Shown one piece after another: positions 7,201-10,200 of a DNA stretch of 13,932 bases (position 1 is the stretch's first letter; each line of letters starts with the position of its first letter). Made by a program: the position numbers. Origin of the DNA: Actinomycetota bacterium (GTDB lineage: Bacteria; Actinomycetota; Actinomycetes; JAKEEW01); the NCBI GenBank assembly GCA_046725875.1, contig JBKOZJ010000190.1:1-13932 (forward strand), in the 5' to 3' direction.

Positions 7201-10200
7201 CGCATCGCGATACACCGGAGCGGAGAGCAGCTCCGACAGGCGTTCCCGGACCGCGCTCCAGGCCGGCCGACCTCGCGACATGAACTGATTGAGGGACGGC
7301 ATGGCGAAGTCGTTGGAGTACGGAACATGGACGCCGCTTGCGGCAAGCGCGGCGACATCAAGGACGCACTCCCCGATGGCGACACCGACTCGCGGTCGTC
7401 CGTTCCGATCGCGCGAGTTCGCGGCGAAGACGCCGTAGGGCAGGTTGGAAAGTGGAAAGTCCGACCCCTCCGGCACGCCGATCCAGGTCGAGGGTGCGTC
7501 CGCTTGCGAAGGCCGGGTGAATCTTAGGGGGTTATCCCGCTGAGGCGCTCGACGTGACGTCTCGCGGGACGGCGTCATGTGACATCCTGCGCGACCACCG
7601 GTGGCGGCTCATATCTCTCGATCAGCCCGAGCGCTGCGAGGTCGTCGACCGGCTCGTCTACGCTGCACGTGCCGAATCCCGTGAAACTGCTCCGGATGGC
7701 GGCGGCTGCGCTCGCGTCCACGCCGAGCGTGGTGGCGACCAGCGCTGCTGTCTCCTTGCTCGCGAGAATCTCGATGAGATCGTCGACCGAGCCGCCTTCC
7801 GTCGCCGCGTGGGTGGCGAGGAGGATGTTGAGGAAGCCGTGATGCTCGAAGCCGCTGTGTTGGTCGCCGTGGCGTACGGCCTGATGCAGCCCGGCGGTGC
7901 ATTTGAACGGAGCGCCCTCGGTCACGCTTGCCCGGACGAACTCGGCCACCTCGATCTCGCTCGGGAAGGCATCGGCAACCAGCCCACCCGTGCGAAGCTT
8001 GACTCCGTAACCACGCGCGGCGACCAGCGAGAGTGCGTCTCGCCAACCGGCAATCCGGGGGAGCTCGACGAACGCCGCGATGTCATCGGTCAGTCGGGAA
8101 AATGCGCGCACCGCCTCGTGTGCTGCGGCAGCGGGGTCGCCATCGACACCGATGGGGACCTCGATCGCGGTAAGCCTCAGACGGGAGTCGTCCGCGCTGG
8201 CACTGACCGCGTCAGGCAGTCGCTCCAGACCGGTATCAAGGATCAGGCTGACCGCGAAGCGGTCATCGTCCACGAGCTCAGCCTGCAGCTCGTCGAGCCG
8301 CGAGGCCGGGCATAGAAACCGGCCGACCAGATCCGCGTAGTCTCCGGTGCGATGATGGCGATGCTCTTTGACCGCGGTTGACATCGGCATGTTGCCCGGG
8401 GGGAAAAGCGATGCATCATCAACTAGGGCAGCCAAAAGCGGGCTCACTGCTCCGGTTGACATGTCCGTGACCTTACCGCAATGTTCTTCTATAGGACAAT
8501 GCTGTCCGATAATCGGACACACCTGCTAGACGGTCGAACGGGGCCAGGAAGGCATCGAACCATGCCGTACTACCGGGCGGTGGGGCAGATCCCGCACAAG
8601 CGACACACGCAGTTCCGTAGGCCAGACGGCGGGCTCTATGCAGAGGAGCTGATGGGGATCGAGGGGTTCTCCAGCGAGTCCGCGCTCCTCTATCACGAGG
8701 GTCTGCCGACGGCGATCGTCGACGTTGAGGAGTGGACGATGCCGGCCGACACCTCGACGCCGAACCATCCGCTCAAGCCGAGACACTTTACGACCCACAA
8801 GCTCGACACCGGCGGGGCTGACGCCGTGAACGGGCGGCAGCTGTTGCTCGCCAATGGAGATGTCCGGGTTTCGTACGCGGGGGTCGACTCACCGTCGGCC
8901 CTCTATCGAAATGCGATCGGGGACGAGTGTGTTTATGTGGAGTCCGGCCGAGCGACGGTCGAGACGGTCTTTGGCGCGCTCACGGTAGCCAAGGGTGACT
9001 ACGTGGTGCTGCCGACCTCGACGACGCACAGGTGGATTCCGGACGAATCGGCGGATGGCGGACCGCTCCGGCTCTTCGTCGTGGAGGCGACCGGACATAT
9101 CGCGCCGCCGGGCCGCTATCTCACCAGACGCGGTCAGTTCAACGAGTTCTCGCCCTACTGCGAACGTGACCTGCGTGGGCCGACCGAGCCGCTGGTCGTG
9201 CCGGGCGAGGACGTCGAGGTTTTCGTACGCCATCGAAGCGGCGGCACGCGCTTCGTTTACGCACGCCACCCGTTCGACGTGGTCGGTTGGGATGGCTGCC
9301 TCTACCCGTACGCCTTCAACATCGAGGACTTCGAGCCGATTACCGGGCGAGTCCACCAGCCGCCGCCGGTGCATCAGACTTTCGCCGGCCCGAACTTCGT
9401 CATCTGCTCGTTCGTTCCGCGGAAGTTCGATTACCACCCGCTGTCGATTCCGGCTCCGTATAACCATGCGAACGTCGACTCCGACGAGGTCATCTTCTAT
9501 GTGGGCGGCGATTTCATGTCACGCAAAGGCGCAGGTATCGAGCTCGGGTCCATCTCGCTTCATCCGAACGGCTTCACGCACGGCCCGCAGCCAGGATCGG
9601 TGGAGGCGTCGATCGGCAAGGAGGCGACCGACGAGTGGGCGGTCATGGTTGACACATTCCGCCCGCTCGAGCTGGGCGACGCGGCGCTGGCCTGCGAAGA
9701 CACGGCGTACGCATGGACCTGGGCCGGTCGGCGCAACGACGGCCCGGATAGCACCACGGGGTGACACGCCGCGGGCGACTCCCCGGCCGCGCTCGGTCGG
9801 GGTAGGGTAGCGGCCCAACATTCGCCGCGCGCCCTGGAGGAAGCCGCCGCCGTGTCACGTACGCGCTTAGCCCTGATCGGAATCATCGGAGTCGCTCTCG
9901 CCAGTCTCACCGGAGCTGTTGTCTTAACATCTGCGTCGGCCACGCCCGCTCCGCGCAGGATCGTCGCCGGCTGGTTGCCGTACTGGAGCATGGACAGCTC
10001 GCTCGCCACCGCCACCTCGAACGCCGACCTGTGGAGCGACGCATCTCCGTTCTGGTACGAGGCGACTGGCGCGAGCACGATCACCAACCACCCCGGCGCC
10101 GGAGACCCTGCCGTCCGCGATGCGCTGCGGGACCAGGGCATCAAAGTCCTGCCGACGGTTACCGAGACCCTCAACGCACCACAGATGGCCGCCCTGCTCG

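Follow-up and report, generated by a model that had tools for sequence, protein, structure and literature searches.

A predicted (beta/alpha)8-barrel protein encoded directly before fumarylacetoacetase is a candidate maleylacetoacetate isomerase of glutathione-free actinobacteria

Introduction

Which protein carries out the isomerase step of tyrosine breakdown in bacteria that lack the usual cofactor? Many bacteria degrading tyrosine via homogentisate have no glutathione, and actinobacteria use mycothiol instead; the homogentisate pathway is a textbook one, and to our knowledge no isomerase other than a glutathione transferase has been described for it. The locus analysed here raises this question. 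In a window of 13,932 nt (the whole stretch of DNA that was studied), genes for 4-hydroxyphenylpyruvate dioxygenase (HPPD), a homogentisate 1,2-dioxygenase-like protein (HGD) and fumarylacetoacetase (FAH) are accompanied by an unnamed gene, hereafter X.

In the literature outside subscription journals, we found no description of the X family or of a maleylacetoacetate isomerase other than a glutathione transferase. For Streptomyces albidoflavus, the guess for the isomerase step is a gene of the MDMPI family (PMC11012174), and a Rhodococcus genome paper gives hmgA and fahA accession numbers that are two apart and guesses an enoyl-CoA hydratase to be 'mai' (PMC4591350). Gene X itself is overlooked in print.

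Results

Gene X overlaps fumarylacetoacetase and belongs to a large unnamed family

The features of the window are collected in Table 1. Relatives of X align over residues 1–295 with up to 75% identity, which supports its start at 8462. Pfam and NCBIfam models found no family for X at E<=0.01, and when all 63 members of its alignment were scanned at E<=10 no real family match appeared. The X profile likewise matched no PDB sequence at E<=10, and the ESM Atlas, consulted for named clusters only, gave no usable match. The family is nevertheless a large one, with 4309 cluster representatives matched at E<=0.001.

Table 1. Features of the 13,932-nt window
Feature	Position	Strand	Basis or remark
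Lrp/AsnC-type regulator, divergent from HPPD	2279..2836	minus	Pfam AsnC_trans_reg and HTH_AsnC-type
4-Hydroxyphenylpyruvate dioxygenase (HPPD)	2993..4228	plus	TIGR01263, 423.6 bits (cut-off 277)
Fumarylacetoacetase (FAH), directly downstream of X	6265..7578	minus	TIGR01266; Pfam FAA_hydrolase and FAA_hydrolase_N
ATGA overlap, shared by the stop of X and the first ATG of the FAH ORF	7575..7578	minus	4 bases, read from sequence
Gene X, unnamed (beta/alpha)8-barrel protein (predicted fold)	7575..8462	minus	ORF from ATG 8462 to TGA 7575, 295 aa; translation, profile scans, AlphaFold2
Palindrome of 17 bases, TGTCCGATAATCGGACA, in the promoter region between the divergent X and HGD	8503..8519	none	Candidate operator
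Homogentisate 1,2-dioxygenase-like gene (HGD), divergent from X	8559..9764	plus	ORF opens at 8481; likely start 8559

The overlap between X and FAH suggests that the two genes are translationally coupled, if the first ATG is taken as the candidate FAH start; the conserved part of FAH begins only at residue 32 of the ORF. One metagenomic protein of 683 aa (P0213) is an X–FAH fusion, the sole clear one. As one protein on one contig, it could stem from an error of one base, made in assembly or gene calling where the ATGA overlap lies, and apart from it the hunt for longer fused forms of X returned one weak match of 695 aa without a Pfam domain.

FAH of the window scores well above its family cut-off (TIGR01266, 479.9 bits against 375.3). 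The HGD-like protein is a remote HGD that falls under the family cut-offs (TIGR01015, 34.6 bits against 510.75); its PDB sequence matches are three homogentisate dioxygenases only, and its alignment with human HGD (1ey2) spans a YYH..SE..SLH..HGP stretch, which we take to be the iron-ligand motifs. The pairing of HPPD with an Lrp/AsnC-type regulator recurs in four other loci (L034, L042, L078 and L079). A preliminary description of the locus had presented X as a 295-aa protein without Pfam or NCBIfam family, overlapping the fumarylacetoacetase start by 4 bp on the same strand, divergent from homogentisate 1,2-dioxygenase and 3 kb from HPPD; the reading frames, the empty scans and the ATGA read directly from the sequence agree with all of this.

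The palindrome TGTCCGATAATCGGACA matches once in the window, against 0.04 matches expected, and its core TCCGATNATCGGA was found again in six other loci, each time in or beside the X/HGD intergenic region. This recurrence suggests that X and HGD are regulated in common.

X accompanies fumarylacetoacetase across the phylum

The distribution of X was followed in a sample of 301 genomes of the class, in a phylum-wide sample and in the 80 best loci among species representatives. With the source genome included, our recount placed the family in 125 of the 301 class genomes, where 124 had been reported before. In 100 of these 125, X directly precedes FAH on the same strand, the two matches being a median of 21 bases apart, and four of the exception loci that were fetched proved to have this arrangement too. 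The same order was seen in 16 of 18 non-self genomes phylum-wide and in 67 of the 80 best loci; HGD lies directly upstream of X in 69 of those 80. By a hand tally, FAH matches at E<=1e-30 occur in about 115 of the 125 X-bearing genomes, compared to 181 of all 301. The place of X before FAH is thus near-obligate, and its linkage is tighter to FAH than to HGD. Rhodococcus jostii, for instance, shows the order MarR-HGD-X-FAH-enoyl-CoA hydratase. A functional tie between X and the homogentisate pathway is strongly supported.

Some copies of X stand alone. Neither FAH nor HGD was found nearby in 8 of 18 fetched exception loci and in 6 of the 80 best loci, and the neighbours of these orphans (GH18, NlpC/P60, 2-hydroxyacid dehydrogenases, transporters and GDSL lipases) have no common theme. 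Such copies would fit a protein that acts after FAH, on another compound such as acetoacetate, or in an unrelated process, its position being inherited synteny. However, the orphans are mostly more divergent copies (28–38% identity), and in several classes of the phylum X and FAH keep their order and strand with almost no distance between them, which makes synteny alone hard to accept. We regard such a role as improbable.

Conversely, 44 class genomes have FAH but no X among the FAH matches listed. HGD directly abuts FAH, with no gene between them, in 8 of 20 fetched X-less loci; one of these X-less HGD–FAH genomes is complete, and in its genus three of five sampled members carry X. As related genomes have HPPD–HGD–FAH operons without X, X must be dispensable or replaceable. 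FAH is 50–68% identical to that of the window whether a genome carries X or not, and because this similarity is equal in both groups, the substrate of FAH is probably the same with or without X. At one X-less locus (L032), an ORF of 245 aa directly upstream of FAH, which has no Pfam family, was considered as a divergent X and rejected (hhalign probability 0.15%).

Other candidates for the isomerase step

No match to the maiA, GST_N or GST_N_3 profiles was found in the source genome, which is 89% complete, in line with the earlier statement that it has no GST-type gene. The four MDMPI_N-family genes that had been reported elsewhere in the genome were all found, none of them near the cluster; the best is a member of TIGR03083. 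The genome makes mycothiol, as MshC and MshD score above their cut-offs. The MDMPI_N genes, or non-enzymatic thiol catalysis, could perform the isomerisation.

If so, X might be an accessory of FAH: a non-catalytic or channelling partner, or a remover of reactive side products, such as compounds that arise from maleyl- or fumarylacetoacetate by decarboxylation or reduction, while an MDMPI/DinB-type mycothiol enzyme or free mycothiol isomerises. Besides the mycothiol synthesis and MDMPI_N genes, the pathway operons without X and the greater faithfulness of X to FAH than to HGD fit this explanation, as does a mycothiol S-transferase (MST) gene (PF04978) that lies tail-to-tail with FAH in all three fetched genomes of one X-less genus. 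In contrast, no MDMPI or MST gene was present in the window, nor did one adjoin FAH in the remaining 17 X-less loci that were fetched. The best MDMPI gene of the source genome adjoins adenosine deaminase and no aromatic catabolism genes, and the polar residues at the mouth of the X barrel (see below), a fully conserved set that resembles that of an enzyme, argue against a purely structural role. We consider an accessory function rather unlikely.

The predicted barrel of X resembles deoxyribose-phosphate aldolase

As the preliminary description had predicted, X was modelled by AlphaFold2 as a (beta/alpha)8 barrel of eight alternating strands and helices, with high confidence (pLDDT 96.3, pTM 0.92). 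The six best structural matches of the model are all deoxyribose-phosphate aldolases (DERA), with per-chain Z scores of 15.6 (1n7k), 15.5 (5c2x), 15.1 (3ndo), 14.6, 14.3 and 14.2. The superposition extends over the complete barrel, with the strands in identical order (rmsd 3.2–4.1 Å over 196–226 residues), and residues 4–282 of X align end to end on residues 3–227 of the 3ndo chain. Unrelated barrels follow at Z 13.4 or less. A Foldseek search of the PDB gave weak, mixed TIM-barrel matches only (best E 6.7e-4, TM 0.3–0.5).

D15, D16, E133, K155, R157, K187, H193, N212, R257 and C266 each show a conservation of 97% or more among 264 relatives. It had been proposed that C51, K155, K187, C188, H193, H198, H208 and C266 are invariant. 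This holds well for K155 (262 of 264), H193 (260), K187 (258), C266 (257) and H208 (250), but not for C51, C188 and H198, which are kept in 200, 195 and 211 relatives (74–80%). The C-terminal strand ends form the usual active site of TIM barrels, and D15, D16, E101, E133, K155, R157, K187 and C266 are located at or just past the C-terminal ends of predicted strands 1, 4, 5, 6, 7 and 8, with K155 on strand 6 (153–157), K187 on strand 7 (186–189) and C266 in the loop after strand 8. That loop presumably corresponds in position to the anion-binding loop of DERA. In the model, the invariant R157 and R257 would suit a dicarboxylate substrate.

These residues bear on the chemistry. The preliminary description had an enzyme thiol take the role of glutathione; two of the three cysteines invoked, C51 and C188, are not conserved, so that from the alignment this idea can rest on C266 only. 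Judging from the predicted fold, catalysis by lysine through a Schiff base is another option. A metal-dependent active site of the DRE-TIM or class II aldolase type, which would use D16, H193 and H208, was considered as a further possibility, given that homocitrate and isopropylmalate synthases match the model at Z 13.1–13.4.

In class I aldolases the Schiff-base lysine lies on strand 6 and a helper lysine on strand 7, and X has a lysine on both of these predicted strands, invariant on strand 6 and 98% conserved on strand 7. With the end-to-end DERA matches, this pattern would suit a hydratase-aldolase that bypasses isomerisation: a lysine iminium would form at C4, water would add to the cis double bond, and retro-aldol cleavage would yield glyoxylate and 3,5-dioxohexanoate, which FAH, as a beta-diketone hydrolase, would split into acetate and acetoacetate. 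FAH accepts other 3,5-dioxo acids. However, no Pfam aldolase matches X, and hhalign comparison of the 63-sequence X profile with an 11-sequence actinobacterial DERA profile gave a probability of 0.2%, a forced global alignment being meaningless; the putative equivalence of the lysines therefore rests on strand positions only. Moreover, FAH of the window is a TIGR01266 equivalog with nothing unusual about it, the FAH of X-less genomes is just as similar, and Pfam and NCBIfam scans found no glyoxylate-handling gene in the window. Such a bypass seems to us very improbable.

Discussion

We propose that X is a soluble enzyme and that the large unnamed barrel family to which it belongs serves specifically to break down tyrosine via homogentisate; maleylacetoacetate isomerase is our best reading of its function, one that we would give about an even chance of being right. 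The preliminary description had proposed X as the missing isomerase: the link to the pathway stands, as the position of X before FAH attests, while the reaction itself is drawn from context and operons of HGD and FAH without X exist. On the favourable side we counted the cluster of HPPD, HGD and FAH in an 89%-complete genome in which no GST-type or maiA gene was found, along with the X–FAH position, the co-occurrence of X with FAH, the palindrome, the conserved polar residues, the similarity of FAH and the fusion. On the unfavourable side we counted the X-less operons, the mycothiol and MDMPI_N genes of the source genome and the orphan copies of X, and also that the nearest folds are aldolases, not isomerases.

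X would be co-transcribed and probably translationally coupled with FAH. As an isomerase, it would most likely turn the cis compound that HGD makes, maleylacetoacetate, into the trans compound on which FAH acts, fumarylacetoacetate, and so replace the GST-zeta isomerase found in organisms with glutathione. R157 and R257, at the C-terminal mouth of the barrel, may hold both carboxylates of the C8 diacid, and K155 on strand 6 may activate the carbonyl at C4, an iminium being one possibility. The C266 thiol, water or K187 would then add at C2 as the nucleophile, allow rotation about C2–C3, and leave.

Known systems offer partial parallels. MaiA/HmgC/GSTZ1 (EC 5.2.1.2; TIGR01262) has the same place in the pathway and the same reaction as we propose for X, and in hmgABC clusters the isomerase gene sits beside FAH, the same kind of place as that of X. 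The GST-type enzyme, however, combines a thioredoxin-like GST domain with a helical domain, whereas all top structural matches of X are TIM barrels; GST models matched neither X (E<=0.01) nor its 63 relatives (E<=10). The MDMPI family (MDMPI_N, PF11716/TIGR03083, of the DinB superfamily) shows that actinobacteria isomerise a maleyl compound cis–trans without glutathione. Its fold and sequence family differ from those of X, which has no MDMPI_N or DinB match, and the characterised MDMPI acts on maleylpyruvate in the gentisate pathway.

DERA (DeoC; TIGR00126/PF01791) is the closest in structure, with a superposable barrel. It carries lysines on strands 6 and 7 as well as acidic residues on strands 1 and 4, a pattern into which conserved residues on the predicted strands of X fall, and glycine-rich loops after strands 6, 7 and 8 were counted as a further likeness. 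On the other hand, sequence homology between the two was not detectable with Pfam, NCBIfam, PDB sequences or profile–profile comparison; X is about 70 residues longer and has Glu on strand 5 where DERA has Lys; and the substrate context of X is a dicarboxylic diketo acid, that of DERA a sugar phosphate. A true deoC is present elsewhere in the source genome. Finally, maleate cis–trans isomerase, of the Asp/Glu racemase superfamily, is cofactor-free and uses an enzyme cysteine of a catalytic pair as the adding nucleophile. It is a precedent for an enzyme thiol, in X possibly C266, but differs in fold and family from X, which has no Pfam match and one conserved cysteine.

On a more speculative level, X might represent a third, mechanistically distinct class of maleyl-compound cis–trans isomerases: a DERA-like barrel that needs neither glutathione nor mycothiol nor any other free thiol and combines a K155 iminium at the C4 ketone with reversible addition of the C266 thiol or water. 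Its chemistry would have been recruited from that of class I aldolases, and X and FAH would have spread together as a module through glutathione-free prokaryotes. We think it unlikely that all of this applies.

X is the best candidate for one step of tyrosine breakdown that has no known enzyme in glutathione-free actinobacteria. Naming this enzyme would close a pathway hole that is now filled by guesses in genome annotation and metabolic models, would give a function to a family of thousands of sequence clusters, and may point to a new way of isomerising an activated double bond.

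Organization of the gene X locus

The 295-residue protein under study (X) is encoded in a window of 64–70% GC content, from a source genome of 3.76 Mb that is 89% complete. An alternative GTG at 8522 would give a longer ORF, and the ATG at 8462 is supported as the start because relatives of 286–298 aa, at no more than 75% identity, span residues 1–295. The stop codon of X shares bases (ATGA) with the first ATG of the fumarylacetoacetase (FAH) ORF, which encodes a true fumarylacetoacetase. Since FAH conservation begins only at residue 32, a start at this overlap is likely rather than proven. 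The 4-hydroxyphenylpyruvate dioxygenase (HPPD) gene lies at the distance from X that the preliminary description had given, with an Lrp/AsnC regulator gene divergent from it.

Features of the X locus and of loci fetched from other genomes
Feature	Location	Coordinates	Strand	Remarks
X ORF	window	7575-8462	-	ATG 8462 to TGA 7575; 295 aa, read from sequence
FAH ORF	window	6265-7578	-	TIGR01266 479.9 bits (cut-off 375.3)
HPPD	window			3 kb from X; TIGR01263 423.6 bits
HGD-like cupin gene	window	8481-9764	+	divergent, upstream of X
Palindrome	window	8503-8519		perfect, 17 bases
GH18 glycosyl hydrolase	window	9852-11540	+	after HGD
Ornithine cyclodeaminase/mu-crystallin ORF	window	4295-6100	-	601 aa
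Protein-kinase domain	window	3-1715	-	runs off window end
ECF (SigE-family) sigma factor	window	1685-2305	+	head-to-head with kinase gene
Membrane protein	window	11977-13632	+	551 aa
GH18	L076	2636-4471		flanks orphan X
GH18	L077	2858-4561		flanks orphan X
Mycothiol S-transferase (PF04978)	L031	4100-5023		tail-to-tail with FAH
Mycothiol S-transferase (PF04978)	L033	6154-6738		tail-to-tail with FAH
Mycothiol S-transferase (PF04978)	L047	6154-7269		tail-to-tail with FAH
MarR - HGD - X - FAH - enoyl-CoA hydratase	L122	615-5359	one strand	Rhodococcus jostii NBRC 16295

Elsewhere in the window, the cyclodeaminase domain occupies the first ~290 residues of its ORF and is followed by a ~300-residue acidic tail rich in Ala/Pro/Glu/Asp/Gly/Thr, with no family match. 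The kinase-domain and sigma factor ORFs, as listed, overlap by ~30 bases, and the membrane protein matches NicO (nickel/cobalt transporter) and DsbD_2 weakly, both over the C-terminal half.

The homogentisate 1,2-dioxygenase (HGD)-like protein falls far under the HGD cut-offs (TIGR01015, 34.6 vs 510.75 bits; also below the Pfam cut-off), and among PDB sequences it matches three homogentisate dioxygenases and nothing else. Its alignment with the human enzyme (1ey2; E 1.6e-5) includes a YYH..SE..SLH..HGP stretch, which we take to be the iron-ligand motifs of HGD. This divergent type shows 60–77% identity across actinobacterial loci, with X present or absent. Standard models under-call the cluster HGD, which is of a very divergent type. 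A palindrome, TGTCCGATAATCGGACA, lies inside the 96-base interval separating the start of X from the likely start of HGD. Its core, TCCGATNATCGGA, is also present at that intergenic position in fetched loci L079, L084, L088, L089, L108 and L155, and the palindrome probably serves a shared repressor as operator.

X is tied to FAH across the Actinomycetota

As the preliminary description had it, X matched no Pfam or NCBIfam model. Scanning 63 relatives at E≤10 gave no meaningful match, the family profile matched no PDB sequence, and no named cluster of the ESM Atlas was usable. At E≤0.001 the family comprises 4309 representatives of 50%-identity clusters, of which 479 pass E≤1e-30, and its members are all named 'hypothetical protein' at source. 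We conclude that the family is real and interesting; its function is proposed rather than proven.

X occurred in 19 of 401 genomes drawn evenly from the phylum. Among the 18 besides the source, 16 had FAH immediately downstream of X in the same orientation; of the other two, one had FAH divergent and one had no FAH inside 1.5 kb. HGD was beside X in 8/18 and HPPD in 3/18. A class sample of 301 genomes gave X in 125 and FAH (E≤1e-30) in 181. Comparison of coordinates placed FAH immediately downstream of X, same strand, in at least 100 of the 125 (median gap between matches 21 bases, range -6 to 260) and on a different contig in 6, while 19 had no FAH among the matches listed (150 places, with 37 weaker FAH matches outside). 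This sample takes in at least six unpublished genomes, four of which (G413, G422, G433, G440) count among both the 125 and the 100; with unpublished genomes left out, X is found in 121/295 and the arrangement in 96/121. Eighteen loci departing from it were fetched: four proved to be usual X-FAH pairs with FAH weaker or frameshifted, one was a second X-FAH pair, five had X adjoining HGD only, and eight held orphan X copies whose neighbours share no common theme.

In the best 80 X loci of a species-representative collection, FAH was directly downstream in 67 and HGD directly upstream in 69 (60 divergent, 9 co-directional); six had neither (three Kitasatospora, two Streptomyces, one Pseudonocardiaceae). 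The distribution data cover Actinomycetota only, and two of these 80 loci, titled as MAGs of Spirochaetaceae and Melainabacteria, may be binning errors. Collectively, the association of X with pathway genes is far beyond chance, and X is tied primarily to FAH. That X is unrelated to the pathway, as the orphan copies taken singly might suggest, or acts after FAH, is improbable.

In the window a GH18 gene comes after HGD, and two orphan X copies without FAH or HGD likewise have GH18 genes beside them; these may be what is left of one neighbourhood once the pathway genes had been lost.

Predicted fold and conserved residues

An AlphaFold2 model built on a 63-sequence alignment (pLDDT 96.3, pTM 0.92) has strands at 14-16, 46-52, 69-74, 95-103, 129-133, 153-157, 186-189 and 260-265, alternating with helices. 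Foldseek returned TIM barrels only, weak and mixed. In an exhaustive VIA-align search the top six were deoxyribose-phosphate aldolases (DERA; Z 15.6, 15.5, 15.1, 14.6, 14.3, 14.2), aligned over 196–226 residues with the whole barrel in register, ahead of generic barrels at Z≤13.4, homocitrate and isopropylmalate synthases among them. Profile-profile comparison of X with actinobacterial DERA was not significant, and the modelled likeness would be one of fold, homology not being implied.

Among 264 relatives, the window's residue is kept at R257 (264), R157 (263), K155 and E133 (262 each), N212 (261), H193 (260), K187 (258), D16 and C266 (257 each), D15 (256), H208 (250), E101 (249) and H34 (245). 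The preliminary description, from a shallower alignment, had called K155, K187, H193, H208, C266, H198, C51 and C188 invariant; the first five hold up, but H198 (211; often Tyr/Asn), C51 (200; often Val/Leu) and C188 (195; often Leu/Ala) do not. Its proposed cysteine mechanism is narrowed likewise, C266 being conserved and C51 and C188 not, so that a thiol route could be supplied by C266 alone.

All these positions fall at, or just beyond, the C-terminal ends of strands 1, 4, 5, 6, 7 and 8: strands 1 and 4 each bear an acid, strands 6 and 7 each a Lys, and strands 6-8 lead into glycine-rich loops. This would parallel the DERA pattern (Asp, Asp, Schiff-base Lys, helper Lys, phosphate loops), and corresponding motifs were seen in our DERA alignment. 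C266 lies in a G-x-C-S loop following strand 8, presumably part of the phosphate-binding loop in DERA, and may bind a carboxylate rather than serve as nucleophile. The modelled fold suggests lysine iminium chemistry, alone or with C266 or water.

Because the pathway step is vacant, X precedes FAH, two invariant arginines suit a diacid and FAH is unchanged, we infer, at even chances, that X is the maleylacetoacetate isomerase. A hydratase-aldolase bypass yielding glyoxylate and 3,5-dioxohexanoate might be imagined for an aldolase-like barrel, and beside an unchanged FAH is very improbable.

Genomes without X and mycothiol-dependent alternatives

At least 44 class-sample genomes have a listed FAH but no X. 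In 8 of 20 such loci fetched, HGD abuts FAH, often as HPPD-HGD-FAH, and is of the same divergent type (61–66% identity to the window's); the other 12 have FAH with HGD absent within 5 kb. One HGD-FAH-abutting genome is complete, on a single contig, and X occurs in 3/5 sampled members of its genus. These operons count against an indispensable role of X. No isomerase candidate stood beside FAH in the 20 loci, except in one genus, where 3/3 fetched genomes carry a mycothiol S-transferase gene (DinB superfamily) tail-to-tail with FAH; its product may be a mycothiol-dependent equivalent of the isomerase.

MshC (611.6 bits) and MshD (340 bits) each exceed their cut-offs in the source genome, and mycothiol is therefore available there. 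The genome also has four genes with the MDMPI_N domain of mycothiol-dependent maleylpyruvate isomerases (MDMPI), the best a TIGR03083 member adjoining adenosine deaminase; maiA (the GST-zeta isomerase gene), GST_N and GST_N_3 found no match in the 89%-complete assembly. An MDMPI-family gene has been listed with the tyrosine-pathway genes of Streptomyces albidoflavus (PMC11012174). That X is an accessory and mycothiol enzymes isomerise is unlikely, though less so than the other alternatives.

The family in the literature

The X family is new with respect to published literature; the accessible full text yielded no description of it or of a non-GST maleylacetoacetate isomerase. As far as its accessible portion goes, the Rhodococcus opacus R7 list gives hmgA (AII08874) and fahA (AII08876), guesses 'mai' to be enoyl-CoA hydratase AII08877, and has no entry for the gene that separates hmgA from fahA (PMC4591350). 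In Rhodococcus jostii the omitted position is X. For Rhodococcus globerulus proteomes, the available excerpt reports HmgA and HmgB and no isomerase (PMC11889516), and in that of PMC10950700 the GST-zeta enzyme is the only isomerase mentioned.

New here are the corrected conservation pattern, the predicted DERA-like fold, the operons lacking X among close relatives, mycothiol availability, the shared promoter palindrome and the Rhodococcus literature gap. Taken together, it is established that X, a barrel protein of enzyme-like character, has a functional link with FAH and the homogentisate pathway.
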